64,000 nucleotides of DNA from an uncultured Gammaproteobacteria bacterium (GTDB taxonomy: Bacteria; Patescibacteriota; Microgenomatia; Levybacterales; GWA1-39-11): positions 921 through 64,920 of the forward strand of contig CAZAJO010000008.1 in assembly GCA_964485575.1 (NCBI GenBank), given 5' to 3'. A model generated the notes under the pieces. That model searched no databases and was not told the origin of the DNA. It was given only the letters and a program-made list of their open reading frames with translations. This document shows positions 45,680-60,804 of the stretch, one piece after another (within the stretch, counting starts at the first letter, position 1; each line of letters begins with the position of its first letter). The position numbers were made by a program, and so were the translations under genes.

Positions 45680-46366
45680 GTGAAAATCTCCGTTATAACA
45701 CTGTTCCCAGAAATATTTGAACCTATTCTCAATCATTCTATTCTAAAACGTGCCACTGAAAAAGGGCTGGTCGAATTTAATATCGTCAGTCACAGAGATT
45801 TTGGAATAGGAGCTCACAAAACGGTTGATGATAGACCATATGGAGGGGGAGCTGGGATGGTTTTACGAGTTGACGTCTTAAGTCAAGCAATTGATTCCGT
45901 AAAAATGAACCTAGAAGGCGAAGTTGTGGCTCTTATGGATCCACAAGGAGAAGTCTATTCTCAAGAAAAGTCAGAAGATTTTTCAAAACTCAATCATCTT
46001 ATTTTAGTTTGTGGACACTATGAAGGATTTGATGAGAGAGTACGGGATCTGGTAGACGTTGAGATATCTGTAGGAGACTATGTCCTTACCGGAGGCGAAA
46101 TTCCTGCAATGATCATTCTAGACAGCGTGACAAGACTTGTTGATGGGGTACTTAAAGACAAAAATGCAACCAGATTTGAATCACATTCAAAAACAGAAGA
46201 GGGTAGAATCCTTGAAGGTCCAACGTACACAAGACCGGAAGAATACAATTCAAAGAAGGTACCGGAGGTATTATTGTCAGGCGATCCAAAGAAAATAGCT
46301 GAATTTAAAAAAAACGAGGCCATCAAAACTACGAAGAGCAAGAGACCCGATCTTCTCAAAGACTAA
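45680..46366 (+). CDS. trmD: tRNA (guanine37-N1)-methyltransferase
   Basis: MKISVITLFPEIFEPILNHSILKRA...DDRPYGGGAGMVL. Confidence 0.9.
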   Translation: MKISVITLFPEIFEPILNHSILKRATEKGLVEFNIVSHRDFGIGAHKTVDDRPYGGGAGMVLRVDVLSQAIDSVKMNLEGEVVALMDPQGEVYSQEKSEDFSKLNHLILVCGHYEGFDERVRDLVDVEISVGDYVLTGGEIPAMIILDSVTRLVDGVLKDKNATRFESHSKTEEGRILEGPTYTRPEEYNSKKVPEVLLSGDPKKIAEFKKNEAIKTTKSKRPDLLKD

Positions 46367-47019
46367 CGCCAACTCTTAAGAGTGTTAAGTTGAGATTCTT
46401 CTGCTTTCGTTAAGTTTTTAACAGCAGTAGTATCGGCGTTTAAGGGTCTTATCGTTACCGGTTTATAATAGAAATTAACGTCAAGTCTTGCATCAGATTT
46501 TGCCAAATCAATAGCCTTTATATCCACCAACGGAATACTTTTATACAATTCTTGAGCAAATTTGCGTAGATTAACATTTTCTCCTGAAGCATTCACTAGA
46601 ATATTAAGAAATGGTATGCCATTCACTACTTTAGCAGTAGGCTGCACCTTCTTATCAGTTTCTGAAGCATAAATTCCACCTACTTTAATACTAAAACCAC
46701 CGAGCTTTACTCCTGCTCTTTCTGCTGCCTTATTGAGCTCAGTGTATATCAAAACTACGTCTTTTTGTAAAGGGAGCGCTGTAGTTACTACTTCATAATT
46801 CTCGTCAACGACTGCTTGCGGAAGAGAATTGAGTAGGGTTACGCTTTGGTCTTTTGCATCGACTGTCGAAGATTTTGTGGTCAATAATGATTGCACGTCT
46901 TGGATGTCGGACCACTGGGGCATTACAATCCGGAAAAACACGAAAAAGGAAGCAAAGCCAAATATCAAAGGCAACAATTGTTTCTTTCTTTTTCTGTAAA
47001 TCAATTCTAACTCGTGCAT
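46363..47019 (-). CDS. pilO: type IV pilus assembly protein PilO-like
   Basis: Third gene of the pilM-pilN-X operon. N-terminal TM helix, then a periplasmic domain. 4-nt overlap with the trmD stop. Confidence 0.5.
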   Translation of the reverse strand: MHELELIYRKRKKQLLPLIFGFASFFVFFRIVMPQWSDIQDVQSLLTTKSSTVDAKDQSVTLLNSLPQAVVDENYEVVTTALPLQKDVVLIYTELNKAAERAGVKLGGFSIKVGGIYASETDKKVQPTAKVVNGIPFLNILVNASGENVNLRKFAQELYKSIPLVDIKAIDLAKSDARLDVNFYYKPVTIRPLNADTTAVKNLTKAEESQLNTLKSWR

Positions 47020-47022
47020 ATA

Positions 47023-47559
47023 TTATTTGAATGTTATCCCGAATGTCAGACTGTATCTTAAGGTCTTTGGATTTAAGCCAAACGATCTCATATCGATTTT
47101 CTTGATCCCTCTTTTTTTGTCTGACGCAAGCTGGGCAATTTTACTTTCAATAAGATCATTGAGAGAAGAGAGGCTTTCAGATTCCAATGTAACCTGCATC
47201 TCCGTATCTGTACCATTGATTGCATCGACTTCTGAATCTTGTGGTATAACACCGGATATTGAATCAAGTCTTGCGACAACTGGAGATCTCTTGCTCAAAA
47301 CTTTTTGTACATCTATTATTCTGCTTTTTATTTCTATCAACTTGTCTTTCTTATCTTGCATAGCAAGTAGTTGAGCATTAAGTTTTTGCTCCTTTTGATC
47401 AAGACTGTCGTAAACTCCCCTCAGAACAAGTCTGTAGACGATTAGTCCCAATGAGATAACAACCGTGAAGCAAAAAACTCCGGCAGTGATATAGAAGAAT
47501 TTCTTTAAAGCGTTATCTACACGTTTACGACCTAATGAGAGATTGATTCCTTGTTTCAT
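47023..47559 (-). CDS. pilN: type IV pilus assembly protein PilN-like
   Basis: Single TM (FFYITAGVFCFTVVISLGLIVY) followed by a coiled coil, directly after pilM. Confidence 0.6.
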   Translation of the reverse strand: MKQGINLSLGRKRVDNALKKFFYITAGVFCFTVVISLGLIVYRLVLRGVYDSLDQKEQKLNAQLLAMQDKKDKLIEIKSRIIDVQKVLSKRSPVVARLDSISGVIPQDSEVDAINGTDTEMQVTLESESLSSLNDLIESKIAQLASDKKRGIKKIDMRSFGLNPKTLRYSLTFGITFK

Positions 47560-47564
47560 AGAGG

Positions 47565-48590
47565 CTAAATTGCGTCCTTTAATGCAAGTCCTGAGACTAC
47601 ATTAAAACTCAATGAGTCGGCACCGATTTCCGGAGGAACATTTTTCATATCATAAACCTGAAATGAACTTCCGAGAACTACCTGAATATTTAGTTGGTTT
47701 GTAAAATATATGTCAACACCAGGCAACTGAGCAGAGCCACCTGAAAGGATCATCTGGGTTATCGGTTGATTTGGATTCTTTTCTTTATACAATAACATTG
47801 TCTTTCTTATGTCTCCCAATATAGACTCCAAAATAGGGAAGAGTGATTTTCCTATTTTACCCTCAAATGCATCTTTATTGAGACCATAGGCTTTTTTGTA
47901 TGAATCTGCCTGGGTAACATCAATACCAAGATCCAATGATATTGCACGTGTTATCGCAATACCTCCCTTATCAACCGTAAATACCATTATCAGTTCCCCA
48001 TTCTCAACAACAGCAATGTTTGTGGTTGCTGCCCCCATGTGAACAATCATATTAGAGGTACCGGTATTTACGAGTGGAAAGATGGATCTATGGACTGAGA
48101 GCATTTCAGTCTCAATAGTAGAAGGTACTAGACCAAGTTCATCAAGTACTGTTTCGTATTTCTTGATGAGCGAAAGTGACGCAGCTACCAGAAGTATTCT
48201 AGATGTTTTGTTTTGCGCAGTTGAAGGACTAAGTACTTGCCAATCAGTCTTGACTTGATCCAATGGAAGAGGAATGTATTGCTCCATTTCATATTTAAGA
48301 GCCGCTGCCAATTCCTTTTCGGAAAGCGCAGGCATCTCAATAATTTTTGTATATACCTGGCTTTCAGGCAGAGCAACATTTACCTCTTTCTGTTTTATAT
48401 TTGCACTTGCAATGATTTGCTTTACTGCTTCAGCAAACTTATGAAGATCCTCTGGGGATTCGGACATGATTCCCTTTTGTGGAGCTGGACCCAGGCCCAT
48501 CGACTCTATAGCAAAAGAGTTTCCTCCTTTTTTAAGAGAAAGCGCCTTGATAGACGTCGTTCCAATGTCTAACCCAAATGTATCGCTCAT
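47565..48590 (-). CDS. pilM: type IV pilus assembly protein PilM (actin-like ATPase fold)
   Basis: MSDTFGLDIGTTSIKALSL... is the actin-like phosphate-1 motif. 341 aa. Confidence 0.8.
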   Translation of the reverse strand: MSDTFGLDIGTTSIKALSLKKGGNSFAIESMGLGPAPQKGIMSESPEDLHKFAEAVKQIIASANIKQKEVNVALPESQVYTKIIEMPALSEKELAAALKYEMEQYIPLPLDQVKTDWQVLSPSTAQNKTSRILLVAASLSLIKKYETVLDELGLVPSTIETEMLSVHRSIFPLVNTGTSNMIVHMGAATTNIAVVENGELIMVFTVDKGGIAITRAISLDLGIDVTQADSYKKAYGLNKDAFEGKIGKSLFPILESILGDIRKTMLLYKEKNPNQPITQMILSGGSAQLPGVDIYFTNQLNIQVVLGSSFQVYDMKNVPPEIGADSLSFNVVSGLALKDAI

Positions 48591-49468
48591 TGTGACAGTA
48601 ATGAATAGGGAAATATCTCAAGTGGCAGTTGGGGATATGACTGGAAATAAACAACTTTTCTGACCGTGTCCCCGGATGTACCCGTTGAAGTTACCACGGA
48701 TCCTTGAGCTGGAAAGACTACCCCTGAAGACTGAAAACCAACAAGACTTGAGTTAAATATTGGGATGACTTTCATGATAAGACCATTTGATAGACTTGCT
48801 CCTCCAAAAGTGAGTGAGGCTGAATTTCTAAATGTTACTCCTTTTAGAGTGAATGGCCCACCCGAGGTGGTGCCAGTTGCCGCACCGGAAATTCTTGAAC
48901 ATCCGGATGCTTCATACACATTTTTTTGAATTGTAGGATTGGCAACCGTTCCTCTCAACAAAACTACTTCGATTGCAGGAGCGACACTGTCACCACTTGA
49001 AGCTGAACAAGAAGTCTGTGACACATTGCCCCAATATAGAGTGATACCCACGGGATTTCCTGCTCCCATTTGATTGAGGAAAAGGTTTGCTGGATTTGCT
49101 GAATAATCAGATAGCCATACATCTGCTCCTGAAGCTTGATCAACCTCCTGTCCATTGTTTATGACAATAGCAGTTCCATTGTCTGTCGTAAAAGTAGTTG
49201 AGAAAGAGGCGTTATTATCTAGATTTATTGGGGAATTTAAAGTACCGATACCACTTTGTCTCTCGATTGTTTGTTGAATGCCTGATTCAGCAGCCTGAAA
49301 AGCTCTTTGAGATTCTTCATTTTGCTTTGAAAGTTTTAATTCAGTTACAACCCGGGCTGCAATGGATAATCCAACTGTTAATGCAACGATCATGGTCAAT
49401 ACCACAATGAGGAGGATTTGTCCTTTCTGACCACCACGAATAATCCCATTTCTAAAAGACATAGACAT
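48587..49468 (-). CDS. PilX-N-like pilus-associated protein (pilin-like N-terminal helix, no Glu5)
   Basis: N-terminus GGQKGQILLIVVLTMIVALTVGLSIA resembles the PilX_N pattern. 4-nt overlap with pilM. Confidence 0.4.
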   Translation of the reverse strand: MSMSFRNGIIRGGQKGQILLIVVLTMIVALTVGLSIAARVVTELKLSKQNEESQRAFQAAESGIQQTIERQSGIGTLNSPINLDNNASFSTTFTTDNGTAIVINNGQEVDQASGADVWLSDYSANPANLFLNQMGAGNPVGITLYWGNVSQTSCSASSGDSVAPAIEVVLLRGTVANPTIQKNVYEASGCSRISGAATGTTSGGPFTLKGVTFRNSASLTFGGASLSNGLIMKVIPIFNSSLVGFQSSGVVFPAQGSVVTSTGTSGDTVRKVVYFQSYPQLPLEIFPYSLLSQ

Positions 49469-49501
49469 ATCAATAATACGGTCAAAGCGGAGACGATGTC
49501 A

Positions 49502-49558
49502 AGCTACGACCTGCTATTCAGGTTGCGCTACGACCTGCTATGCAGGTTGCGCTATGGA
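49502..49558. repeat. 24-nt tandem direct repeat (2.3 copies); each unit carries an ACCTG...CAGGT hairpin
   Basis: gctacgacctgctattcaggttgc / gctacgacctgctatgcaggttgc / gctatggac, lying between two pilin-like genes. Confidence 0.7.
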
Positions 49559-50136
49559 CTAAAGTTTCTCATCGTAACTGATGTATTGAATGGACTATTT
49601 GCTGTATTTTCACTTGTAGTATTTGCTCTTTGTGAAACGGTGAAAGATACGCTTATGATAGGCTGAGAATAAGGGTTTGCATTATTTTGTAAACACGAAA
49701 AAGTACAGCTAGCAGGATCAACTTTTACTGAATTATTGTCTATTAGATAGGTAGTTATAGAACCACTGGAGGAAGCTATGCTTGCTGATTGAATATCGCA
49801 AGAAAACGCTACGAGTGAGTTATCGGATTGCTTGAATTCGATTGACGTGCCTGACTTAAGAGTAGTGCAATCTGAGATGGCAACACCTCCAACTTTTGTC
49901 ACTGACTCAGCCAATCTTGCAGTATTTGAAATAATTGAAAGAGCATAATTACCATTTTGAGAAACATCATTTGTTACTTTAGTCTTATTACCACCACGAA
50001 GAGTAGAGTAGAGAATACCGACTATTAGCCCCGACACAATCACAATGATACTTGTAACAGCCAAAAGCTCAACAAGAGTGTAGCCCTTTTGGCCATTTTT
50101 TAGTTTGTAGTTTATAGTTTTTAGTTTGGTAATCAT
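49552..50136 (-). CDS. type IV minor pilin / pseudopilin (prepilin N-terminal methylation domain)
   Basis: Leader ...NGQKG|YTLVELLAVTSIIVIV with Glu at +5. Confidence 0.8.
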   Translation of the reverse strand: MITKLKTINYKLKNGQKGYTLVELLAVTSIIVIVSGLIVGILYSTLRGGNKTKVTNDVSQNGNYALSIISNTARLAESVTKVGGVAISDCTTLKSGTSIEFKQSDNSLVAFSCDIQSASIASSSGSITTYLIDNNSVKVDPASCTFSCLQNNANPYSQPIISVSFTVSQRANTTSENTANSPFNTSVTMRNFSP

Positions 50137-50678
50137 GGATTACTGGCAGGATACGCATATGGCATACATGCAATAAGTTCTGACTTGTGACAAAATGTGT
50201 TTGTCGAGGGACATTTCGTCGAAATCCATTTGACTCGTACAGTTACTTTTATTTCAGTGTTTGGACATTGCCCCCCACTTGGGGAAAAAACAACTGTCCT
50301 GTTAAAAGTTGTTCCCAGGTTGATTCCAGTATCGCTACAAGATGTAGTTGTTAAAGTATTGTTATCTTCATCAATACAGTATGTTGCATTTTGGTTAAAT
50401 GAAGCAAAGGTTGAAAGATCGTTTTTCTGTATGTTCCTTACGAATTCGATTCCTTGTTGCGCATACTTATTGGCTTGGTTTTGTTTTTTTATGAAAGTAG
50501 AATTATATAGTCCATTCACAATCACAATAGCTATAGCTGTAATGATAAGAAGGATAGTCATAAGCGCAACTATCGCTTCAATAATTGTTTGACCCCTTTG
50601 AAGTTTGTGTTTCATATCATTGAACAGAAATATTTCCACCGGAATCAATAGTGATAGTTTTTGTCTGACCGTATCCAA
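50133..50678 (-). CDS. type IV minor pilin-like protein
   Basis: ...KHKLQRG|QTIIEAIVALMTILLII. The probable true start is the internal Met at ~50615, which removes the overlap with the upstream pilin. Confidence 0.7.
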   Translation of the reverse strand: MDTVRQKLSLLIPVEIFLFNDMKHKLQRGQTIIEAIVALMTILLIITAIAIVIVNGLYNSTFIKKQNQANKYAQQGIEFVRNIQKNDLSTFASFNQNATYCIDEDNNTLTTTSCSDTGINLGTTFNRTVVFSPSGGQCPNTEIKVTVRVKWISTKCPSTNTFCHKSELIACMPYAYPASNP

Positions 50679-51168
50679 TCACTACGATATTACATGGAGC
50701 CCCACCAACCGTTGACGACAAAGGACTAAAATGAACCTGAGTACAAGTAGTTGCAGCAGAAAAAGTTAAATTGTTGGGTAAAACAAGAAGTCTTATGCGT
50801 GAGGGGCTTACATTCTCGCACAATTGATTGAGTTCCATCTGAGAATTACCAAGCATATTTATTGTGTATCCCCCAAGAGAATCAGAACCACAAGAGATGG
50901 TATTGCCATTGAGGTCTTGATTGGTCTTGACTGCAGATAGTGCGTTGAATCGAGCCTGACTAACAAGAAGTTTTATATTATTGCCGGTTTGATTGACTTG
51001 TTGGGAGTGACTATACGTAACGAAAGACACAATTCCTATGCCAGAAAGTACAGCAATTATGCTAAACACAACAAGAAGCTCAATTAGGGTGAAACCACGA
51101 GAATTTGAGAGTTGAGATTTGAGAATTAAGAATTTTAAATTTGTGATCTTCTGGGTAAAACATTTCAT
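50617..51168 (-). CDS. type IV pilin (prepilin)
   Basis: Leader ...LKSQLSNSRG|FTLIELLVVFSIIAVL; the same leader as the next pilin. Confidence 0.8.
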   Translation of the reverse strand: MKCFTQKITNLKFLILKSQLSNSRGFTLIELLVVFSIIAVLSGIGIVSFVTYSHSQQVNQTGNNIKLLVSQARFNALSAVKTNQDLNGNTISCGSDSLGGYTINMLGNSQMELNQLCENVSPSRIRLLVLPNNLTFSAATTCTQVHFSPLSSTVGGAPCNIVVIGYGQTKTITIDSGGNISVQ

Positions 51169-51205
51169 ACTTAAATATCAATTCTCAATTTTCAATTATC
51201 AATTT

Positions 51206-51667
51206 TTATGGGCTGGTTAATTTGAAAGGTACATTCGGGGAAGTACAAACGTTAGCGTCGGCTTGATCAGTATCCTTCTCAGAGTCATTTGAATTCTCAA
51301 GGCAACCAAATAGTGTGTAGGTAGATCCGTCAACTGCTGCAGTATATATATAAGGGTCACCCGTAACTGGATCACATGGTACTTTCTGCATATATACGGT
51401 CCCATTTACTGAAATCCCATTACCACAAGTAGATAGATTTGCAGTAGCAGGGTAGTCACCATTATCTGCTCTGTAAAGCTCTAAAGCAGACTGCATTTGG
51501 TACATATTTGACTTTCTTTGCCCGTCTCTTCCTCGTTGTCTTGCACCAATGAAATTTGCTGTCAAAAGAGCTGTGAGAATAGCAATTATAGAGATTGAAA
51601 CCAATAATTCGATGAGCGTGAAACCTCGAGGGTTTGAGAGTTGAGATTTGAGAGTTGAGAATTTCAT
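51206..51667 (-). CDS. type IV pilin (prepilin), Cys-containing
   Basis: MKFSTLKSQLSNPRG|FTLIELLVSISIIAIL. 153 aa with four Cys. Confidence 0.85.
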   Translation of the reverse strand: MKFSTLKSQLSNPRGFTLIELLVSISIIAILTALLTANFIGARQRGRDGQRKSNMYQMQSALELYRADNGDYPATANLSTCGNGISVNGTVYMQKVPCDPVTGDPYIYTAAVDGSTYTLFGCLENSNDSEKDTDQADANVCTSPNVPFKLTSP

Positions 51668-52029
51668 GATTGATTCTTAAGTTTATTAATTATAGAAACC
51701 AGTATGGCTACAATCTCATTTGATTCACTTTTAAGTTTAGATAGTTCTTTTGCCGAAAGCAAGCCTGATACCTCAATGACTTCAAGCCAATAGTATGTCT
51801 CCTTAGCTTCTCGAAGAGAAATGAGCATTTTTTGCCTAAAATCCTTAGGTGATGATGCATCTTGCGCCTCGTAAACATTCGCCCCAATTGAAGTAGCAGA
51901 CCTAACAATTTGAGATGCTAACGCGTAACCTGCAGGAGTTTTTGGAAACATATTAGACAACCTTATAGTATCTGAAGAAAAAGAAATCAAACGTTGCATA
52001 AATTCTTTTTTCCATTGATTTCTGTCCAT
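51664..52029 (-). CDS. four-helix-bundle protein of the 23S-rRNA-IVS (TIGR02436-like) family
   Basis: ...SQIVRSATSIGANVYEAQDASSPKDFRQKMLISLREAKETYYWLEV... matches the family pattern (SIGANIAEG...DF...L.IA.GS..E...WL). Confidence 0.55.
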   Translation of the reverse strand: MDRNQWKKEFMQRLISFSSDTIRLSNMFPKTPAGYALASQIVRSATSIGANVYEAQDASSPKDFRQKMLISLREAKETYYWLEVIEVSGLLSAKELSKLKSESNEIVAILVSIINKLKNQS

Positions 52030-52069
52030 AATGTGAACATTTTTAAATTTTCAAATCTCAATTCTCAAT

Positions 52070-52717
52070 TCATGGCGATATATTTGGGCTTGTAACTCCA
52101 TAGGTGCAGGGCACATTTGTTCCGCAGGTTATATCTGTTCCGCCAATTCCGGTCCCAATCGTACTTTGGCAAGCACTTCCGCCATTGCAAGCCTGAGGAT
52201 CATTGCCACCTCTGTCTAAAGATGCATAAAGTGCATACGACTGCCCGGTAGAATCTGACCAGTACGCATAATTCTTAGCAACCTTTGGATCTATTGGGAG
52301 TACATCCATATATGGACTCCATGTGTGTCCCCATGCAACTGCGGTACCGCTTGTCCCATCTGTGGATATCTCATTTATGTTTGCAGCTTGGTAGGCTGGA
52401 GGATATCTATGGAAGTCGTTATAATAGACCTCAAGTGCTCTTTGGACCTGTGCAAGGTCTCCTTTTCTTTTTGAGTCCTGGCTTTTATTGAACTGCTCAA
52501 CTGGATTGACAACGGCAAGGATGAGTGCGGACAAAACTCCAAGAACACCGATGACCGTAATTAGCTCGATGAGAGTAAATCCACCACTTACCCCTACAAG
52601 AAGTTGTTGACGAAGATATTGAGGATTTGTTCTCCCCAAAAAAGGGATATCACGACTGAAACAACCAAAAAAGGTCCGAACGGAATTGTGCTTCCAAAAA
52701 AGTGCAATTTGCGCCAT
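52070..52717 (-). CDS. type IV pilin (prepilin); start probably downstream of the track start
   Basis: ...LLVGVSGG|FTLIELITVIGVLGVL. The track start overlaps pilD by 124 nt. An in-frame TTG at ~52639 would give a 20-aa leader. Confidence 0.75.
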   Translation of the reverse strand: MAQIALFWKHNSVRTFFGCFSRDIPFLGRTNPQYLRQQLLVGVSGGFTLIELITVIGVLGVLSALILAVVNPVEQFNKSQDSKRKGDLAQVQRALEVYYNDFHRYPPAYQAANINEISTDGTSGTAVAWGHTWSPYMDVLPIDPKVAKNYAYWSDSTGQSYALYASLDRGGNDPQACNGGSACQSTIGTGIGGTDITCGTNVPCTYGVTSPNISP

Positions 52718-53355
52718 ACAACCAGTATGATTGAGACCAAAGCACCTGTCAAGAAAGCCATATATAAGGCTACGATGACTGATGGAAATCCCAATAAAAA
52801 CCCTAATACGAAGGAAAATTTAACATCCCCAAACCCCATTCCCCTCCCCTTTGTAATTGCGAAAAGTATAAGAAAAAACAGCAGTGCACCGATTCCTGCA
52901 TATAGATGATTTGTTAGCGGCACATGCTTCTCGTAAAGATAAAAGATGCTTGCTATCGTTGACACTATGACTAATAAGTCAGGTATAATCCCGTATTCGA
53001 TATCGGCAAAAAAGATTCCTATAAGACTCCACAATATCACAGCTAAAAACAAGGCAGAAAACATAGTAATTGTCTGCGCCATAAATAGTGTGGCAACAAG
53101 CGTAAATGTTATACCAGTCAAAACTTCAACAATGATGAGCCTTCGCGGAATTTTTTTCTTACAAAATCTACATTTTCCACCCAAGATAAGATAAGAGACT
53201 ATAGGGATAAGATCTTGTGGGGAGAGTATTCTTTTACAGTGTTCACAGTACGATCTTCCACCAACAATACCACGCCCCGTTGAAAGTCTATCAATAACAA
53301 CGTTTAGAAAACTCCCCAAGACGCTACCAATTATAAAAGAGAGTAGTAGAACCAT
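52594..53355 (-). CDS. pilD: prepilin peptidase (A24 family)
   Basis: N-terminal CxxC...CxxC (YCEHCKR...CRFCKK) followed by polytopic aspartyl peptidase helices. Confidence 0.85.
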   Translation of the reverse strand: MVLLLSFIIGSVLGSFLNVVIDRLSTGRGIVGGRSYCEHCKRILSPQDLIPIVSYLILGGKCRFCKKKIPRRLIIVEVLTGITFTLVATLFMAQTITMFSALFLAVILWSLIGIFFADIEYGIIPDLLVIVSTIASIFYLYEKHVPLTNHLYAGIGALLFFLILFAITKGRGMGFGDVKFSFVLGFLLGFPSVIVALYMAFLTGALVSIILVVWRKLHFFGSTIPFGPFLVVSVVISLFWGEQILNIFVNNFL

Positions 53356-53368
53356 TCCTTAAGTATAC

Positions 53369-55393
53369 CTATTTTTGTACTTCTTTTGTTATGGCTTTCT
53401 TTATATCTTCATTGAAAATACTCTTGTAGTATTTAGCAACCTCATCTACCTTCTTTTTATCTTTGTAACAATTTAATGCGTTGAAGTACCAGAAATAATA
53501 ATAACTTTTCTCGATAGGGTACAGATCTATTGCTTTTTTCATATCCGTATCTGCATCCGAGCAGTTACCGTATTGGCTTTCAACTCTGGATTTGCCTGCA
53601 TATCCTTTAGAAAACTCAGGATCAATAACAGTTGCGTATTTATAGTATTTAGCCGCGGCGCTAAAATCAGCATACTCACTAAAAAAAACATCCCCAATTT
53701 TGACGAATGCATCAGCATAATATGTAGGAATGTCTGACGTTGTAAGATTCCTCTCACTTGGTAGTAGTTTTGCCCGTTCTGGGATGTCGATACTGGCAAA
53801 ATCGTGTGGGAACATCCTCCTATAATCTTCAACGGAGGGTAAATTTTTTCTTTCAATAAGTTGATAACCTATTCCCCTCGGTAACCACATAAATTCGCTA
53901 TTGTTGAGTTTGATCTGCGTTGTCGCAAAAACGGGACGACTCTTTGATATTTTTTCGATAGTCCTAAAAAAGGCGTACAGATCGTCTTTTTTGTATTCTT
54001 TCTTTGATTGCTCAAAGAGAGGTGTGAAATAGTCATTTCTTATGGCAAAATTTCCTATTTCAACAAGCTCTATGTCTGGCCTTGTCTTCTTCACAAAGTG
54101 CATGTACCACGTATTGAATGATTTCGTATCCCCCTCTGCAACAAGTATTGATCCTTTAGGTAAATTTCTCATGAAATTGGCTCCAAATTCATTTCCAATC
54201 GACATGCTTGAGAGGTTTGTTTTTTGATAATTTTTAGTGAACTGCAGTAGTGGAATCAATATAAAAACCGCCAAAAGAATCATTGAATATATCTTTTTTG
54301 AAAAGACTCTTGCAAAAAAAGTGTAGATAAATAGTAATCCCCACGGAAAAAATATGACCAACATGACCTCAGAAAGAAGATAAAAACGTTCAACTGTTGC
54401 AAGAACAAAATTGTTGGTTATAGGAAAAGCTGCATAAAGGATAAATACTGGACCTAGAAGTAGGATAGACCCCATCATCAAAAACCCTAAATATTTTTCT
54501 TTACGAATCATGTTATATATTCCAAGTAGTGAAATAATTACAACTGGTATAGTTAATGAAGAACTGAGTGATTCAAAATAGTTTTTCAATAGGAAACTCC
54601 TCAATTCAAATGCAGGTCTAGGAAATATTCCTGCTGAAAATGTACCATAATCTCTTCTTAATACAAGGTTGATGAAATTCGGAAGGTTTTTTGCGTCATC
54701 CCAGTTTACGACCGGATTTCTAACAGCTGCTATTGGGATGTAAAGATATGGAAGCAGCCCTAAAAGAAAAACAGGGGGTAACCATAGTAATTTTTTGCGG
54801 AAAGAAAAAATTTCCCGTCTTTTGTTTATAGCCAAAAAGACAACTAGTGGGACCAGCATGAGAATAGTCATGTGGTTTGCCAACCCAAGGCCCAAAAATA
54901 ATACTGTCAAAGCTAAGTTTTTAAATCTCACCTTCTTATAAAAAATGAAAATATTGTAAACCATGCAAAGGGAAAGAAATATATTGAGCATAAAAACCTC
55001 AGGTATTTCGCTAAAAAGCCAGAAATGATAGGAAAATGCCAGCGCTCCGATACTTATGATTTGGATCATCTTATCCGATATGAAGATTTTTGTGATTTTC
55101 CAAAAAACGAAAAGTGAACCTATCGCTGCAAAAGCAGAGATCAGTCCAACTTTAGTAACAGGCTCAAGATTTAGTTGCAAATGACTTAAAGCAAAACCAA
55201 GCACTGTAAAGAGTGGGTATCCCGGAGGGTGAGCAACACCACCAACTACAGCAGCAGTAACGAGATCTCCAACATCCCCACCATAAATATCACTTGTCAA
55301 TCCAGATATATAGAAAAATAAGATTATGGACAGAAAAATAGAGACGAAGAAGGAAAAAAAGCCGATTGTTATTTTTATTCCACCAATAGACAT
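53369..55393 (-). CDS. polytopic GT-C-like membrane protein (DUF2723/TMEM260-like) with C-terminal TPR repeats
   Basis: About 12 TM helices, a GDVGDLVTAAVVGGVAHPPGYPLF loop near the N-terminus, and C-terminal TPR-like YYKYATVIDPEFSKGY.../AIDLYPIEKSYYYFW. Confidence 0.45.
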   Translation of the reverse strand: MSIGGIKITIGFFSFFVSIFLSIILFFYISGLTSDIYGGDVGDLVTAAVVGGVAHPPGYPLFTVLGFALSHLQLNLEPVTKVGLISAFAAIGSLFVFWKITKIFISDKMIQIISIGALAFSYHFWLFSEIPEVFMLNIFLSLCMVYNIFIFYKKVRFKNLALTVLFLGLGLANHMTILMLVPLVVFLAINKRREIFSFRKKLLWLPPVFLLGLLPYLYIPIAAVRNPVVNWDDAKNLPNFINLVLRRDYGTFSAGIFPRPAFELRSFLLKNYFESLSSSLTIPVVIISLLGIYNMIRKEKYLGFLMMGSILLLGPVFILYAAFPITNNFVLATVERFYLLSEVMLVIFFPWGLLFIYTFFARVFSKKIYSMILLAVFILIPLLQFTKNYQKTNLSSMSIGNEFGANFMRNLPKGSILVAEGDTKSFNTWYMHFVKKTRPDIELVEIGNFAIRNDYFTPLFEQSKKEYKKDDLYAFFRTIEKISKSRPVFATTQIKLNNSEFMWLPRGIGYQLIERKNLPSVEDYRRMFPHDFASIDIPERAKLLPSERNLTTSDIPTYYADAFVKIGDVFFSEYADFSAAAKYYKYATVIDPEFSKGYAGKSRVESQYGNCSDADTDMKKAIDLYPIEKSYYYFWYFNALNCYKDKKKVDEVAKYYKSIFNEDIKKAITKEVQK

Positions 55394-55443
55394 TATTGAA
55401 AGTTATATCAAAAAAAAGAAATTAAGAGAAGACTAAAGATGAA

Positions 55444-56010
55444 TTACTGTGTACACCAGTAGCAGTTGGCATTATTAGGAGCTACTGGATTGTTTGGACC
55501 TCCTACGCAAGCTGCATTTGAGCTTGGAGTAGTACCATCCTGGTTATACTTTGTATTAATATCACGCTCTTGAGATTTTGATTTTGGCTGATAGCACATT
55601 GTTATATTCCCACCTGTCTCACTAGCATATAGATTGGCAAGTATTCCGGTAGCTGTTGTGAAGGCTGGTTTGAGTTCTCCCTCAGTTATAAGAACTCCGA
55701 GACATGTTGTGAACATAGCAGAATCGGTAAATAAATTGACTGCTGACAACGTATTGTTGCCTACGCCCATACATTCAGCACCTGCTGCCCCCCAAGGCAT
55801 AGCACTATGAGTAGTGTAGTAGCGAATGTTTGCATTCAGAAACTCAACCGCAGTATTTTTAGAATTTGAATCTTGTGCTTTATTCAACTGCTCGAAAGGG
55901 TCAATAGTCGCAACCAAAGCAGCAGCGAGGATACCGAGAATACCAATAACAACGAGAAGCTCGATGAGGGTGAAACCTTTCTGTAACTGTCGGACAGGTG
56001 ACAATTTCAT
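55444..56010 (-). CDS. type IV pilin, canonical leader (major pilin candidate)
   Basis: MKLSPVRQLQKG|FTLIELLVVIGILGILAAALVA. Six Cys. Strong upstream promoter-like elements. Confidence 0.85.
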   Translation of the reverse strand: MKLSPVRQLQKGFTLIELLVVIGILGILAAALVATIDPFEQLNKAQDSNSKNTAVEFLNANIRYYTTHSAMPWGAAGAECMGVGNNTLSAVNLFTDSAMFTTCLGVLITEGELKPAFTTATGILANLYASETGGNITMCYQPKSKSQERDINTKYNQDGTTPSSNAACVGGPNNPVAPNNANCYWCTQ

Positions 56011-56019
56011 ATTAAGTCA

Positions 56020-56052
56020 ATCATAACCACAATGAATTTCCCTTGTCAAGGG
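56020..56052 (-). promoter_or_regulatory. putative promoter (-35 TTGACA, 18 nt, -10 TATGAT) overlapping a 13-bp palindrome CCCTTGaCAAGGG
   Basis: Minus-strand read: ccCCTTGACAAGGGaaattcattgtggtTATGATtgacttaatATG(56010). Confidence 0.4.
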
Positions 56053-56064
56053 GTACTTTCACGC

Positions 56065-56673
56065 TTAAAGGAAGATAGATTCAATGGCAATTTTTCTATT
56101 TATGTTATTGGTTTTGGTAAGACTCAAAAGAGGTAAAGCTTTCTTACAATAATGAAAATAACTGACTACGTTTTCATCATCGATGCTTTCAAGAAGTAGT
56201 GTCCTTAAAACAGGGATAATTTCATCTAAAGAATAATCCTCTAGAAAAATTGCTGCATCATCTATCGTTCCCCAATCTCCTTTTGTCTTGCATATGTTCC
56301 TTATCAGGCTAGGGAGCTCTTTAATAATAGTTGTTTCAAATCCCACTCTGACAACCGAACATCTGGAACGAATCGTCGGCAACAAATAATCTTCGTTCAT
56401 TGATACAAAAATGAAATAAATATTCTCATTTGCTTCTTCAATATTTTTAAGAAGAGCATTCTGTGCCTCAATAGTAAGAGTACCTCTAAAAACGATCAGT
56501 TTTTTTGTTGGCGTTTTGTAGTTGAGGGATTTTTTTATATTTCTTGCATCTTCAATCTTGATGATTTCATCAATATATTCAGTCTCGAAAGGGGAGAAGA
56601 GATTTTCTATCTGGTATCTCTCTAAATATTCATCCGTAAGTCTTTTGTCACCGATTAATAAGATGCTATTCAT
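56065..56673 (-). CDS. DNA polymerase III delta-prime (HolB)-like, short form without P-loop
   Basis: TIEAQNALLKNIEE... and the sensor-2-like LLPTIRSRC. Confidence 0.5.
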   Translation of the reverse strand: MNSILLIGDKRLTDEYLERYQIENLFSPFETEYIDEIIKIEDARNIKKSLNYKTPTKKLIVFRGTLTIEAQNALLKNIEEANENIYFIFVSMNEDYLLPTIRSRCSVVRVGFETTIIKELPSLIRNICKTKGDWGTIDDAAIFLEDYSLDEIIPVLRTLLLESIDDENVVSYFHYCKKALPLLSLTKTNNINRKIAIESIFL

Positions 56674-56781
56674 TCAATTTATTTTATACCATATATAGAA
56701 AGTGTTGTTGACGGCAATGGCAATTTCAACTACGATAAATGTACCGCTTTTAGGAAGCGGGGTTTGTAGTGAGGAAAAACT

Positions 56782-58527
56782 ATGCCTACTGTCCAAAATC
56801 AATTTAACGCCCCTGTTGATAGTGCTGGGCCAAGTATTGGAAGTATCCTTGTCCAAGAAAAACTCTTAAGCCCAGAACAATTCGCAAATCTTAAGGTTGA
56901 GGCAGCAAAGCAAAATATTGATATTGATAAGCTTATCCACGATCTTCAGATCATCCCCGAAGAGAAATATTTCGAAGCACAAGCAAAAATGCTCAATGTC
57001 CCCTTTACAAGCGTAACTACTCTTCCTTTTTCACCTGAAGCTCTTGGATTTATTCCAAAATCTGTGGCAGAAAGGTTTAATCTCATTCCGTTCGCATTTG
57101 ATAGGGAGGCAAAAGTTCTATCTGTTGTCATGAGCAACACAAATGATGTTGAGGCTATTGAATTTATTAAGCAAAAAACTGGCGCAACTATCAAGGTGTT
57201 CCAGGGAATTCCTACCGAAGTTACACAGGCTATACAGACCCAATACAGTTTCGGGCTGGTTGGTGAAGTTAAAGCAGCTCTCAAAGAAAGCGAGAAAATC
57301 CAAAAAGTTAAAACTTTTGATTTACAAAGCATTTCAGAGGTTATTAAAGAAGCACCTATAGCCAAAATAGTTTCTACAATTCTTGAGTATGCTGTTAAGA
57401 GTAGAGCTTCTGATATACATCTTGAGCCTCAAGAGGATAGAGTGAGAGTGAGATACAGGATAGATGGCATCCTTTATGAGAGGCTATCTTTGCCGTTAGG
57501 AGTAAGTGAAGCCGTTATTTCTCGTGTCAAAATTTTATCGGGTCTTAAAATTGACGAGCATAGAACTCCCCAGGATGGTCGTTTTAATTTTAAGGTTGCA
57601 GAAGAGGAGGTTGATCTTCGTGTAAGTTCACTTCCGACTGTTTTTGGTGAAAAAATTGTCATGAGGTTGCTTCGAAAATCCGGGGGAGTACCGACTCTTA
57701 ATGACCTTGGCCTGGGAGGAACATCCCTAAGGACACTTGAAGCTGCCATGCTTCGTCCTCATGGAATCATTCTTGTCTGCGGACCTACCGGATCTGGTAA
57801 AACAACGACTCTTTATGCAGTCCTGTCAAAACTCAATACGACAAGAGTAAATATTCTCACCCTAGAAGATCCTGTCGAATACCAAATTCCTGGCGCCAAT
57901 CAAGTTCAGATCAATGATGATGTAGGCCTTACTTTTGCCACAGGTCTCCGGGCATTTTTGAGGCAAGATCCGAATATCATACTCGTAGGAGAGATTCGTG
58001 ACAAAGAGACGACAGAACTTGCCATACAGGCTTCATTGACCGGACATTTAGTGTTCTCGACACTTCACACTGATAGCGCATCAGGAGCTCTTCCTCGTCT
58101 TATCGATATGGGTGCAGAAACTTTTCTTCTTGCCTCAACGATCAATGCGACGATGGGACAACGTATCGCAAGAAAGATATGCTCTCATTGCAAGATTGAA
58201 TACACCCCGCCACCTGAGATCATTGAAGAGATGAGAAAAGTTCTCGGCCCACTGATGCCAAAAGGTAATGGTGCACCTATAAAACTATTTAAAGGTTCAG
58301 GATGCGAGGTTTGTGGCCACTCAGGATTCTTGGGTCGGGTCGGAATCTATGAAGTAATGGCTATCAGTGAAGGGATTGCAAAACTCATCTTAGAGAGAAA
58401 AGACAGTACGACAATTGAGACAAAAGCCAAGGAAGAGGGAATGATTACAATGAAACAAGATGGATACCTCAAGGTTCTTTCCGGAGTAACAACAATCGAT
58501 GAGATTCTAAGAGTTGCGCAGGAATAA
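56782..58527 (+). CDS. pilB: type IV pilus assembly ATPase PilB (GspE family)
   Basis: GPTGSGKTTT Walker A, Asp/His boxes, tetra-Cys CSHC...CEVCGHSG, and an N-terminal GspII-like domain. GAGGA SD 8 nt upstream. Confidence 0.92.
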   Translation: MPTVQNQFNAPVDSAGPSIGSILVQEKLLSPEQFANLKVEAAKQNIDIDKLIHDLQIIPEEKYFEAQAKMLNVPFTSVTTLPFSPEALGFIPKSVAERFNLIPFAFDREAKVLSVVMSNTNDVEAIEFIKQKTGATIKVFQGIPTEVTQAIQTQYSFGLVGEVKAALKESEKIQKVKTFDLQSISEVIKEAPIAKIVSTILEYAVKSRASDIHLEPQEDRVRVRYRIDGILYERLSLPLGVSEAVISRVKILSGLKIDEHRTPQDGRFNFKVAEEEVDLRVSSLPTVFGEKIVMRLLRKSGGVPTLNDLGLGGTSLRTLEAAMLRPHGIILVCGPTGSGKTTTLYAVLSKLNTTRVNILTLEDPVEYQIPGANQVQINDDVGLTFATGLRAFLRQDPNIILVGEIRDKETTELAIQASLTGHLVFSTLHTDSASGALPRLIDMGAETFLLASTINATMGQRIARKICSHCKIEYTPPPEIIEEMRKVLGPLMPKGNGAPIKLFKGSGCEVCGHSGFLGRVGIYEVMAISEGIAKLILERKDSTTIETKAKEEGMITMKQDGYLKVLSGVTTIDEILRVAQE

Positions 58528-58529
58528 AT

Positions 58530-59597
58530 ATGGACATCAATCAATTATTAGAAAAGGCCATCACAACAAATGCTTCAGACCTTCATCTTATGGTCGGTGT
58601 ACCTCCCGTGTACAGAATAAATGGAGCACTCCAGCAGCTATCTACTGTACCACCACTTACGGATCAACAACTTGAGCAAATGGTCATGTCTTTGCTCTCC
58701 CCAGCACAAAAAGATATGTTTGTCACCAACCGCGCTCTGGATTTCTCGTATGGGTATGGGGGTGGAAATTTTGGAGATAAAGGTAGATTTAGGGTCAACG
58801 TTTATTACCAAAGAAATTCAGTTGCTGCAGCATTTAGACTACTTCCTCCGAAAGTAAAGACAATAGAAGAACTTCGCCTCCCCCCTATTTGTCACAAGCT
58901 AGCTACTCTAAAGCATGGATTTGTATTGATCACAGGACCGACCGGACATGGTAAGACAACTACAATTGCCTCAATAGTTAATGAAATAAATATGACAAGA
59001 GCCGCAAACATTCTAACAGTTGAGGATCCAATAGAATATGTCTTTCCCAAGGGAAGAAGCATAATATCTCAAAGAGAACTTGGACACGACACATTATCCT
59101 GGGCTGAAAGTCTTAAAAGCGCACTACGGGAAGACCCCGATGTTGTTATTGTAGGCGAAATGAGGGACCCCGAAAGCATAGCAAGTGCTATAACTATTGC
59201 CGAAACTGGCCACTTAGTACTGTCAACGCTTCACACAAATTCGGCTGCACAAACAATAGACAGAATAATCGACTCATTTCCAGAAGCCCAACAAAATCAG
59301 GTAAAGATCCAACTCGCGGCAACACTTGAAGCAGTAGTATCCCAAAGACTGATTCCAACGATTGATGGTCTAAGGATTGTTGCAACTGAAGTTCTTCTTG
59401 CCACAAATGCAGTCAGGGCCAACATCCGAGAAGGTAAGACTCACTTGATAGATTCGACGATCGAGACGTCTTCAGAAGAGGGAATGAACTCACTTGAAGC
59501 ATCTCTCGCACAACTCGTTAAGGAAGGCATCATAACCCTTGATGTTGCACAAGCTTATGCATTAAGACCTGATAGCCTTGCCCGCATGATGGGATAG
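58530..59597 (+). CDS. pilT: twitching-motility ATPase PilT
   Basis: GPTGHGKTTT and VVIVGEMRDPESI. 355 aa directly after pilB. Confidence 0.9.
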   Translation: MDINQLLEKAITTNASDLHLMVGVPPVYRINGALQQLSTVPPLTDQQLEQMVMSLLSPAQKDMFVTNRALDFSYGYGGGNFGDKGRFRVNVYYQRNSVAAAFRLLPPKVKTIEELRLPPICHKLATLKHGFVLITGPTGHGKTTTIASIVNEINMTRAANILTVEDPIEYVFPKGRSIISQRELGHDTLSWAESLKSALREDPDVVIVGEMRDPESIASAITIAETGHLVLSTLHTNSAAQTIDRIIDSFPEAQQNQVKIQLAATLEAVVSQRLIPTIDGLRIVATEVLLATNAVRANIREGKTHLIDSTIETSSEEGMNSLEASLAQLVKEGIITLDVAQAYALRPDSLARMMG

Positions 59598-59601
59598 AAC
59601 T

Positions 59602-60804
59602 ATGGATTATTCATTCGTTGCAGCTGACAAGCAAGGACTCAAACAAAAAGGAAAACTTGAGGCCAATGATCAAAAAGAGGTAGTTGATTACCTTCGGTCG
59701 AAAGAGTTAACCCCACTTGAAGTAAAGAGTCTTGAGAAGAGGGAAAGTAGTCTCATGGGTTATTTTTCCCGTGTCAAAGGGAATGACATCGTTCTTTTTA
59801 CCAGACAACTTGCTTCAATGATCCTAACCGGTCTTACCGTTATTGAGAGCTTGAATATTCTAAAGCAACAGAACAATAAACCACAGATGCAAAAGATTGT
59901 CGATGATCTTATAGCAAATCTTTCAGAAGGAAAACCATTATCAACTGCTCTTGCAAATTATCCGGCAGTTTTTTCGACCACCTATATTGCCCTTATAAAA
60001 TCGGCAGAAGAGGGTGGTATCTTGGATAAAGTGCTTGCCCGTCTTGCCGACAATCTTGAAAAGTCAGAAGAAATCCACAAACGGGTAAAATCAGCTCTCT
60101 TTTACCCAGGGATCATTATCTCCGGTGTAGTAATTGTTATCGTCATGATGAATGTTTTTGTTATCCCACAAATGGGTGCATTATACGAAAGTCTTGATCT
60201 TCAGTTGCCTATCATGACTAGGATTGTTCTTGCTGGATCAAAATTGACGACAACACTTCTTCCTTTCTCTATCTTTTTTATTATTGGCGGGTATTTTGGT
60301 TTTAAGAGATTTGCAAAAACAGTAACAGGCATTCGGATTATCGATAAAATAAAGTTAAGAGCTCCAGTTTTTGGGGACATCATGAGGTTATCTATCTTAA
60401 GTGAGGTATCAAGAACCATCTCATTGCTGGTAAATTCCGGCGCATCCCTTATTGGAGCATTAAATATTGCCGCAGATGTTTCAGGAAATGTCTATTACAA
60501 AAGCGCTCTCAAAGGAACGAGCTCTCTTGTTGAAAAAGGAGCTGGACTGTCGGTCGCTTTACAAAATCAGATGATATTTCCACCTTTAATGATACAAATG
60601 GTAAAAGTTGGAGAATCTACCGGAAAAATTGACGAATCCCTTCTGAAAGTAAGTGAATATTTTGAAAGAGATCTTGATATTAAGGTAAAGACTCTTACGA
60701 CCTCCATAGAACCTATCCTTATCATCATTCTAGGAGTCTCTGTAGCATTCCTTATTATCTCAGTTATTACCCCTATATATTCACTGGTATCTCAAATCCA
60801 GTAG
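59602..60804 (+). CDS. pilC: type IV pilus platform protein PilC (GspF family)
   Basis: Two GspF repeats with three TM segments. 400 aa after pilT. Confidence 0.9.
   Translation: MDYSFVAADKQGLKQKGKLEANDQKEVVDYLRSKELTPLEVKSLEKRESSLMGYFSRVKGNDIVLFTRQLASMILTGLTVIESLNILKQQNNKPQMQKIVDDLIANLSEGKPLSTALANYPAVFSTTYIALIKSAEEGGILDKVLARLADNLEKSEEIHKRVKSALFYPGIIISGVVIVIVMMNVFVIPQMGALYESLDLQLPIMTRIVLAGSKLTTTLLPFSIFFIIGGYFGFKRFAKTVTGIRIIDKIKLRAPVFGDIMRLSILSEVSRTISLLVNSGASLIGALNIAADVSGNVYYKSALKGTSSLVEKGAGLSVALQNQMIFPPLMIQMVKVGESTGKIDESLLKVSEYFERDLDIKVKTLTTSIEPILIIILGVSVAFLIISVITPIYSLVSQIQ

Follow-up and report, generated by a model that had tools for sequence, protein, structure and literature searches.

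Type IV pilus (T4P) genes in candidate phyla radiation (CPR) bacteria encode PilB, PilT, PilC, PilD, PilM, PilN and PilO at one locus, and PilQ is absent (Meheust et al. 2019, PMC6744442). Functional studies have been made only in Saccharibacteria, in which T4P mediate host binding and twitching and competence depends on comEC (PMC11623550, PMC9894109, PMC10187176). Here we describe a pilus gene cluster in a 64-kb stretch of contig CAZAJO010000008.1 (hereafter the window), a glycosyltransferase of the GT-C class encoded beside one of its pilins, and short tandem repeats that encode several of its prepilin leaders. The analysed region was 46363–60804, and genes were assigned from a listing of open reading frames (ORFs) and from family scans with Pfam, NCBIfam and PDB profiles. 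The cluster very probably encodes a type IVa-like pilus machine for an envelope without an outer membrane. Like the described CPR systems (PMC6744442; T4P-1 and T4P-2 of Nanosynbacter lyticus TM7x, PMC11623550; TM7i, PMC9894109), it comprises PilB, PilT, PilC, PilD and PilM homologues, PilN-like and PilO-like proteins and several pilins, with no PilQ in the window, and it shares with the Saccharibacteria pili a small major pilin, larger minor pilins and a PilX with an extra beta domain. Unlike TM7x and TM7i, it belongs to Microgenomatia and not to Saccharimonadia, forms a single cluster of fixed order, and has PilN-like and PilO-like proteins too diverged for Pfam. Since CPR pili of this PilQ-less architecture have been published before, the system adds one more member to a known kind. 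The cluster itself adds little, as secretin-less T4P are a recognised CPR hallmark under genetic study in Saccharibacteria. The GT-C beside the major pilin and the heptamer-repeat leaders are not described in the CPR T4P papers; only the GT-C linkage and the excess of period-7 repeats extend what has been published, and we present them as leads and not as demonstrated findings. Monoderm type IVa pili, such as those of Clostridium and Streptococcus sanguinis, are similar in having a motor set with PilT and PilMNO and no secretin; they are distant in sequence, and the leaders here, 8 to at least 25 residues long, are hypervariable.

Genomes were scanned with PilB as the query, and 69 loci (labelled with L-numbers) were obtained. 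The closest loci either were titled Candidatus Levyibacteriota (L003 and L005) or came from mis-titled records, and the organism is a Candidatus Levyibacteriota bacterium (CPR, Microgenomatia). The records of L001, L002, L004, L006–L013 and L020, which are third-party (TPA) entries of metagenome-assembled genomes, are titled "uncultured Gammaproteobacteria bacterium", an apparent mislabel. Using tblastn, one-to-one orthologues of the window proteins were found in the same order in L001–L013 and L020. About a dozen Levyibacteriota loci keep this gene order, and trmD and gyrB flank the cluster in these relatives as in the window. More distant Microgenomatia (L072, L073, L075, L076 and L078) carry co-linear pilB-pilT-pilC, pilin, GT-C, pilD, pilin and pilM genes. 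Divergence between the window and its closest relative, L001, was mosaic: PilB, PilT, PilC, PilM and GyrB were 98% identical, and PilN, PilD, the GT-C and several pilins were 82–87% identical. HolB was 58% identical, although its gene lies between pln6 (96%) and pilB (98%).

The pilus genes form one block that spans the analysed region. All of the genes that the first-pass annotation had named were found where it had placed them. pilB, pilT and pilC run on the plus strand, divergent from pln6 and the minus-strand block, whose order of transcription is pln6, GT-C, pilD, pln5, a four-helix-bundle gene, pln4, pln3, pln2, pln1, a PilX-like gene, pilM and the pilN-like and pilO-like genes. The extension ATPase PilB (56782–58527) matched T2SSE with 423 bits and contained an MshEN N-domain and an intact zinc tetracysteine; its score against TIGR02538 was 548 bits, under the equivalog cut-off of 675. 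The retraction ATPase PilT (58530–59597) scored 430 bits on TIGR01420 (cut-off 319), and its Walker A, Walker B, His box and AVRANIRE motifs were intact. The platform protein PilC (59602–60804) contained two T2SSF domains (E = 1e-54, 184 bits) and scored 260–320 bits on GspF and PilC models. As PilB and PilC are under the equivalog cut-offs, their membership is at the family level only. On the minus strand, the prepilin peptidase/N-methyltransferase PilD (52594–53355) matched A24_N_bact (E = 4e-28) and Peptidase_A24 (E = 5e-15), and both the catalytic Asp and the Cys-rich methyltransferase region were present, the two CxxC, IIPD and GMGFGDVK (GxGD) motifs being intact. The identifications of PilD, of the divergent PilB-PilT-PilC set, of PilM and of a PilO-fold protein hold, by family matches and motifs and, for PilO, by a low-confidence structure model. 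The description of the stretch as a type IV pilus system is correct for the pilus gene set. The stretch is, in addition, not purely a pilus operon, because the GT-C gene, an Avd-like gene (the four-helix-bundle gene) and a holB-like gene (56065–56673, between pln6 and the divergent pilB), none of them named in the first-pass annotation, are interspersed.

The distal genes of the minus-strand block were assigned with different certainty. PilM (47565–48590), the actin-like cytoplasmic component, matched PF11104 (E = 7e-51) and scored 174 bits on TIGR01175 (cut-off 133). The PilN-like protein (47023–47559, 178 aa) was named from its position between pilM and the pilO-like gene, its size, an N-terminal transmembrane helix and an INL motif, which we take to be the PilM-binding motif of PilN; M1, I5, N6 and L7 were invariant in seven orthologues. 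The PilO-like alignment-complex protein (46363–47019, 218 aa) has an N-terminal transmembrane helix and a coiled coil followed by two alpha-beta-beta motifs. Neither protein had a match in the Pfam, NCBIfam or PDB profile searches, and hhalign gave no mutual match between them. The PilO fold was recognised by a structure model alone after the sequence searches had failed, and the protein had only 48 database homologues, all of at least 45% identity and none with a Pfam domain. The PilX/GspK-like large minor pilin (48587–49468) gave a sub-threshold PilX_N match (E = 7e-4) and a lollipop-shaped predicted model. Its start is probably the second ATG, at 49462, and its hydrophobic N-terminus (G↓QILLIVV; the arrow marks the cleavage site) has no Glu5. 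GspK/PilX-type proteins lack this residue. Of the pilO-pilN-pilM and PilX-like genes annotated earlier, PilM stands by profile and PilO by a low-confidence model, PilN found no match, and the PilX-like assignment is sub-threshold.

Six further ORFs, designated pln1 to pln6, encode pilins. All six frames of the whole 64 kb were scanned for the class III signal peptide motif, which was detected in six ORFs, all inside the pilus region; the same scan gave one off-frame chance match (7302–7328, plus strand), antisense to a giant ORF described below. Gly(−1) and Glu(+5) were present in all six pilins, with Phe at +1 in four, Tyr in one and Gln in one. The earlier count of six pilins was borne out by the motif scan and the family matches, each pilin having a G↓x...E signature, and the condition named there as a refutation, leaders without the G↓F..E processing signature, failed. 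N_methyl or T2SSG was matched by five of the six, and pln2 was the exception, with no Pfam match and weak NCBIfam matches only.

All six genes lie on the minus strand. The minor pilin pln1 (49552–50136) has the leader MITKLKTINYKLKNGQKG↓YTLVE (KG↓YTLVE), matched N_methyl (E = 2e-5) and has orthologues in all relatives. The minor pilin-like pln2 (50133–50615), whose true start is Met22 of the listed ORF, begins MKHKLQRG↓QTIIEA and weakly matched PilV, GspI and ComGF; its Gln(+1) was kept in 12 of 12 orthologues. The GspH/FimU-like minor pilin pln3 (50617–51168) has the 25-aa leader MKCFTQKITNLKFLILKSQLSNSRG↓FTLIE (...ILKSQLSNSRG), a single canonical start codon upstream of the cleavage site, and matches to N_methyl (E = 3e-8) and GspH (E = 3e-7). 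Two pilins are GspG-like with N_methyl and T2SSG matches. One is pln4 (51206–51667; leader MKFSTLKSQLSNPRG↓FTLIE, RG↓; TIGR01710, 60 bits), whose ATG overlaps the stop codon of the four-helix-bundle gene (ATGA). The other is pln5 (52070–52639 or 52717; ...VGVSGG↓FTLIE; TIGR01710, 52 bits), which overlaps the 3′ end of pilD and has an ambiguous start, either TTG at 52639 with a 20-aa leader or ATG at 52717 with a 45-aa leader. Finally, pln6 (55444–56010) has the leader MKLSPVRQLQKG↓FTLIE (KG↓), which is conserved among orthologues, an N_methyl match (E = 2e-9) and six conserved Cys residues.

pln6 is the probable major pilin, judged from a strong, conserved promoter of its own and an N-terminal helix that hardly varies. 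Mature residues 1–33 were invariant in 11 of 12 loci, with one substitution, Glu5 to Gln, in L002. The promoter-like site, TTGACA-18-TATGAT (56020–56049, minus strand), agrees with the consensus at 11 of 12 positions and ends 9 nt before the ATG; CTTGACAA-N-TATGAT was invariant in 11 loci, and all sequence upstream of it diverges. Among the remaining subunits, pln3 weakly matched GspH, pln2 resembled PilV/GspI, and the PilX-like protein resembled PilX_N/GspK. Gene order and these weak matches suggest a canonical H-I-J-K priming complex followed by an L/M-like PilM-PilN-PilO set.

Directly downstream of pln6 is a gene for a 674-aa GT-C protein of the TMEM260/DUF2723 family (53369–55393, minus strand). 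It matched PF11028 (E = 2e-17, 63.8 bits; cut-off 24.2) and PMT_2, and phmmer aligned residues 17–445 with the solved structure of the human protein O-mannosyltransferase TMEM260 (PDB 9rql) at E = 1.5e-38. Asp40 (GGDVGD) in the first extracytoplasmic loop aligned with Asp52 of TMEM260 (GGDSGE), a catalytically important residue (PMC10214176). Residues 556–660 matched the tetratricopeptide repeats (TPRs) of OGT and consensus TPRs with E-values of 1e-4 to 1e-2. The protein thus resembles TMEM260 (PMC10214176; PDB 9rql) in its GT-C module, in the conserved loop GGDxG[DE]L..A...GVAHPPGYPLF, which holds the catalytic Asp, and in its C-terminal TPRs; unlike human TMEM260, it is bacterial and lies in a pilus cluster.

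The GT-C gene was present in the window and in the Levyibacteriota loci L001, L002, L007–L010 and L020; in L007–L010 and L020 it is joined by a second GT-C, which is PIG-V-like. The gene was absent from L003, L004, L006 and L013, where pln6 is of a different sequence type. Among eight homologues of 36–39% identity, six occurred in the order pilin, GT-C, (Mannosyl_trans2-like GT-C), PilD, and the gaps between the pilin and GT-C genes in these six linked loci were mostly 5–10 nt. A Curtissbacteria locus also has a pilin followed by a GT-C. All 15 GT-C-linked pilins have the Thr that is Thr137 of pre-pln6 (55600–55602), and none of the four unlinked pilins does; as a candidate glycosylation site it is speculative. 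No paper linking DUF2723 to pilins was found in the searchable literature. The nearest precedent comes from P. aeruginosa, whose GT-C enzyme TfpW is encoded beside the pilin that it arabinosylates (bioRxiv 10.1101/2020.04.19.049825). As with TfpO/PilO and TfpW of P. aeruginosa, the accessory gene here immediately follows the major pilin gene, its presence co-varies with the pilin allele, and the fold is GT-C as in TfpW; unlike TfpW, the enzyme is of the TMEM260/DUF2723 type with TPRs, and many related loci add the second GT-C. At the site occupied by the GT-C in other loci, L012 has a 325-aa integrase/transposase-like ORF (identified by eye; 7566–8543, plus strand) between pilD and a major-pilin-like gene.

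The first-pass annotation had also noted that two pilins share the extended leader LKSQLSN(S/P)RG. The match is real: the pln3 and pln4 leaders have 20 identical nt (CTCAAATCTCAACTCTCAAA) and 86% identity over 56 nt, where 0.02 matches with three or fewer mismatches are expected by chance. It is not a conserved signal, since orthologues lack it and it derives from a repeat. LKSQLSN is encoded by 21 nt, which are three 7-nt units in frame (CTCAAAT CTCAACT CTCAAAT). The period-7 array (TCTCAAN) that encodes the pln3 leader lies at 51102–51134 and that of pln4 at 51634–51661; an array with a different unit, detected by the tandem-repeat program TRF, encodes the pln1 leader at 50097–50128 (all on the minus strand). 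In L001, mature pln3 shares 86% and mature pln4 97% identity with the counterpart in the window, yet the leaders and the spacers preceding them are unrelated, and similarity resumes exactly at the Arg-Gly-Phe-Thr codons. Across the closest relatives, the orthologues of both pilins have leaders that are unrelated and range from 6 to over 30 residues, and the CTCAANN array encodes leaders of other paralogues, namely pln5 in L002, pln6 in L009 and pln1 in L010. Because the orthologues have unrelated leaders, the shared leader is neither a conserved signal nor evidence of close paralogy of pln3 and pln4; no similarity between the mature proteins was detectable by tblastn at E ≤ 1e-5. Judged from these nucleotide comparisons, LKSQLSN is a translated DNA repeat and not a conserved peptide signal. 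A caution for annotation follows, as a long leader common to two pilins may be a by-product of a DNA repeat.

We surveyed tandem repeats with TRF in 302 kb of Levyibacteriota loci. Period 7 was the modal period, with 67 arrays as compared to 14 of period 6 and 9 of period 8. Twenty of the 67 lay no more than 95 nt upstream of a cleavage site, a zone that makes up 2.2% of the sequence (binomial P = 1.6e-17); of the rest, 36 fell in other intergenic and 11 in other coding sequence. Many leaders of the relatives likewise have period 7, with unit sequences that change from one genome to another for a given gene. CPR pilus loci (L001–L013, L020 and L070–L078) contained 0.16–0.32 period-7 arrays per kb versus 0.05 in the non-CPR loci L034–L069; non-CPR pilus loci have four times fewer arrays per kb, and periods 9, 12 and 6 dominate there. 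The simplest reading of these distributions is that the gene segment for what PilD would remove tolerates a repeat of intergenic type and has been replaced by it time and again; the tolerance may come from the loss of the leader at cleavage. The excess of 7-nt tandem repeats in intergenic DNA and pilin leaders of CPR is a genome feature that goes beyond published descriptions. It is reminiscent of the short tandemly repeated repetitive (STRR) heptanucleotide sequences of cyanobacteria.

Other repeats were observed in the same survey of loci. Pseudo-cleavage sites are duplicated in tandem in prepilin leaders of L008 (about 3381–3560), L010 (about 3259–3334) and L007 (about 4054–4160; minus strand), as in KGGQAGFSIPKGGQTGFSIPKGGQTG↓FTIIE and SSGFSVLKGRESAGFSVLKGRESAG↓FTIIE and, in L008, GFSIPKGGQT three times. 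These duplications point to relaxed constraint. In the window, recG (41822–43864) carries two in-frame period-7 arrays (42548–42579 and 42875–42912, plus strand) whose units, CAAACTA and TCTCAAC, also occur in the pln1 and pln3/pln4 leaders; in RecG the arrays read ...ANYKLQTTKF... and ...SKLSTLNSQFSI.... At the contig end of L009 (11715–11865), 21.6 copies of the heptamer AATGGCT directly follow pilB, and because this array is long enough for instability, it may explain the assembly break there. A function of the shared-leader repeat as a DNA-uptake sequence was considered and rejected, as the 64 kb contain only four sites with this repeat and the ComP_DUS match of pln4 was sub-threshold.

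The gene set could also belong to a type II secretion system (T2SS) or a ComG-type competence pseudopilus, that is, a short piston spanning the periplasm or wall with no surface pilus. PilB scored 557 bits on GspE as compared with 548 on PilB, the best match of PilC was GspF, pln4 and pln5 matched GspG, and the ComGA, ComGB and ComGC models matched too. The G-H-I-J-K-L-M gene order would also resemble T2SS operons, and the cluster is like a gspE-F-G-H-I-J-K-L-M-O operon in its homologous ATPase, platform, peptidase and (pseudo)pilins and in H-I-J-K followed by L/M-like genes. Unlike such an operon, it contains PilT, which like PilM is above the family cut-off, and GspD (the secretin), GspC and GspL were not found among the window ORFs; homologous CPR systems, moreover, make surface pili (PMC11623550). 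We therefore consider a T2SS or ComG identity highly improbable. To our knowledge, ComG systems are without PilT and PilMNO. The preferred type IVa-like pilus has points that weigh against it as well. PilB and PilC are under equivalog cut-offs where T2SS models score equally well; T2SSG domains were found in pln4 and pln5, so the choice of pln6 as the major pilin is indirect; the PilO model has low confidence (predicted local distance difference test score, 63); and the PilN assignment, with neither sequence nor structure support, is the weakest item of the gene list. All functions (filament, cleavage, methylation, retraction and glycosylation) were assigned by homology. PilQ/secretin and ComEC domains were both absent from the window ORFs of at least 110 aa, a search confined to these 64 kb. 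This agrees with the earlier statement that pilQ is missing and answers its suggestion to look for pilQ and comEC elsewhere within this range; the same PilQ-less set is published for CPR (PMC6744442). In a type IVa-like machine, PilD would cut the leaders of the seven pilin-like proteins after Gly(−1) and N-methylate residue +1. A complex of PilM, the PilN-like and the PilO-like proteins would sit with the PilC platform in the cytoplasmic membrane, a tip complex of pln3, pln2, pln1 and the PilX-like protein would prime polymerisation in the GspH-I-J-K order, PilB would drive polymerisation of pln6, and PilT would depolymerise the filament for retraction. By analogy with Saccharibacteria, likely uses would be host-cell attachment and twitching, possibly with DNA capture. 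The GT-C would act on pln6 at the outer face of the membrane. From gene linkage we infer O-glycosylation (mannosylation) of pln6 by this enzyme, a claim to which we give somewhat under an even chance. That the GT-C instead modifies other envelope proteins or a polymer, and is linked to the pilus by a shared envelope function or by chance, is a serious contender that we also place below even. Two of the eight sampled homologues lie outside pilus clusters, among the GT2, GT4 and methyltransferase genes of general glycosylation clusters; four Levyibacteriota loci have no GT-C, and as these represent about two lineages, its presence may follow phylogeny; and no polyprenyl-phosphate sugar synthase gene for donor synthesis was found in the 64-kb window. 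On the other side, tight adjacency to the pilin is kept down to 36% identity and in two cluster layouts, the TPRs form a substrate-recognition domain as in protein O-mannosyltransferases (PMC10214176), and TfpW provides a precedent.

For the leaders, a functional peptide signal, for example one that sorts the two pilins or times their processing, would account for LKSQLSN(S/P)RG being carried by two pilins of one genome and for its obligatory translation, as no alternative start lies between the ATG and the cleavage site. This is very unlikely, because the orthologues in the closest relatives bear unrelated leaders, the motif sits on other paralogues in other genomes, and it is made up of three units of a DNA repeat, which is also found in non-coding DNA and in recG. 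The period-7 leaders may, alternatively, act as switches or recombination modules for minor pilins. If they were contingency loci, gain or loss of a unit would shift the frame and switch minor pilins on or off; the Neisseria opa genes have CTCTT pentamer repeats in the region of the signal peptide. Units of 7 nt are not divisible by three, period-7 arrays occur in the pln1, pln3 and pln4 leaders, arrays are enriched 13-fold at the 5′ ends of these surface genes, and the period is kept while the unit sequence varies. Heptamer repeats also control the HMW adhesins of Haemophilus (PMC8262952, PMC12721329). The arrays thus resemble the simple sequence repeats of contingency loci and the cyanobacterial STRR in having tandem 7-nt units at surface-gene 5′ ends and in intergenic spacers; unlike contingency loci, they are short (3–5 units) and imperfect, their unit differs from locus to locus, and no variation in copy number was seen. 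All arrays observed were in frame, the copy number of the pln1 array was equal in the window and L001, and other arrays were replaced outright; a metagenome scan for pln4 alleles returned one L001-like contig, and most arrays are simply intergenic. Phase variation is therefore unlikely, though it deserves mention. RNA structure offers another explanation, in which inverted heptamer arrays form hairpins that hide minor-pilin starts or serve as RNase III sites and so set stoichiometry, with the leaders long because they supply the 3′ arm. An intergenic inverted copy of the pln3 array (51173–51205, minus strand) is 76% complementary to 51102–51134, the pln3 start codon sits in the 38-nt loop between these arms, and the fold has −21.5 kcal/mol (z = −2.9). 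L001 has a different repeat, whose copies in the spacer and the leader are once more complementary, and an rnc gene (identified by eye from the ORF translation) is located at 44442–45113. Among 70 pilin upstream regions, however, the mean fold z was −0.36 versus −0.33 for random controls, with only six below −2, and we regard this explanation as improbable. As a general rule, a conserved RNA hairpin before every pilin was rejected on the same values. For the repeats we thus keep the reading of tolerated DNA repeats in a removed leader. Tentatively, and at clearly less than an even chance, we propose that the major pilin of Microgenomatia is O-mannosylated by a dedicated TMEM260/DUF2723 GT-C, often with a PIG-V-like GT-C, and that the leader repeats are possible switches or recombination modules. 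If this were true, it would be the first function assigned to bacterial relatives of a human disease-linked protein O-mannosyltransferase and a new class of pilin glycosylation, and CPR pilus surface chemistry, with its bearing on host recognition and phage evasion, would be tied to a defined enzyme.

The four-helix-bundle gene between pln5 and pln4 (51664–52029, minus strand; 121 aa) matched the 23S_rRNA_IVP/Avd-like families (PF05635, E = 5e-23; TIGR02436, 99 bits). It was present only in the window and at the same site in L010 (3840–4178, minus strand), two non-sister genomes, and was absent from L001 and from nine other Levyibacteriota loci spanning the site. The gene is bracketed by an inverted repeat, whose upstream arm (52041–52068, minus strand) is 82% complementary to the downstream arm, the pln4 leader array at 51634–51661. 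The layout in L010 is the same, with inverted heptamer arrays on either side and the stop codon overlapping the pln4 ATG. The gene is probably a variably present insert and not a part of the pilus. It looks like a cassette whose downstream arm supplies the pln4 leader, and it may be small and mobile or recombining. The PF05635 family is related to Avd of diversity-generating retroelements (PMC10053308). An identity as such an element was rejected, since no reverse transcriptase domain was found in the window ORFs and the region contained no pair of template and variable repeats or long imperfect repeat.

Further promoter-like sites and RNA elements were located in the cluster. A TTGACA-18-TATTAT site (49473–49502, minus strand; 11 of 12 consensus positions) precedes the PilX-like gene and ends 4–10 nt before its start; CTTGACA and TATTAT were invariant in nine Levyibacteriota loci, with unconserved flanks. 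As this site and that of pln6, the two best promoter-like sites, end so close to the start codons, the mRNAs of pln6 and of the operon beginning with the PilX-like gene would be leaderless or nearly so. Between the pln1 stop codon and the promoter of the PilX-like gene are two tandem 24-nt units, each a 6-bp hairpin (49503–49550, minus strand), possibly an operon-end structure; in L006 and L013 a different double hairpin takes this place. For pilB, a TTGACG-17-TACGAT site (56708–56736, plus strand; TTGACnG-17-TACGAT across loci) is followed by a hairpin in the 5′ untranslated region (56744–56760, plus strand), a U-rich tract and a GAGGA Shine-Dalgarno sequence. Like the other two, this promoter-like site was invariant between diverging flanks. 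The hairpin was conserved, with compensatory changes in three of five stem pairs, and together with the U-rich tract it looks like a terminator or attenuator. No Rfam family reached its gathering score anywhere in the window, and no tRNA genes were found there.

Outside the cluster, other large ORFs of the window encode ATP synthase, PBP1A, RecG, a tRNA synthetase, NUDIX proteins and others. The giant ORF (2–26113, minus strand) has at least 8,700 codons and runs off the start of the window. It contains an N-terminal helix-turn-helix-like segment and one transmembrane helix, followed by a sequence rich in Thr, Gly, Asn and Ala (18% Thr). No credible Pfam domain was found in it, and its GC content is 0.44 as compared with 0.38 in the rest of the window. 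The product is probably a giant surface fibre or adhesin.

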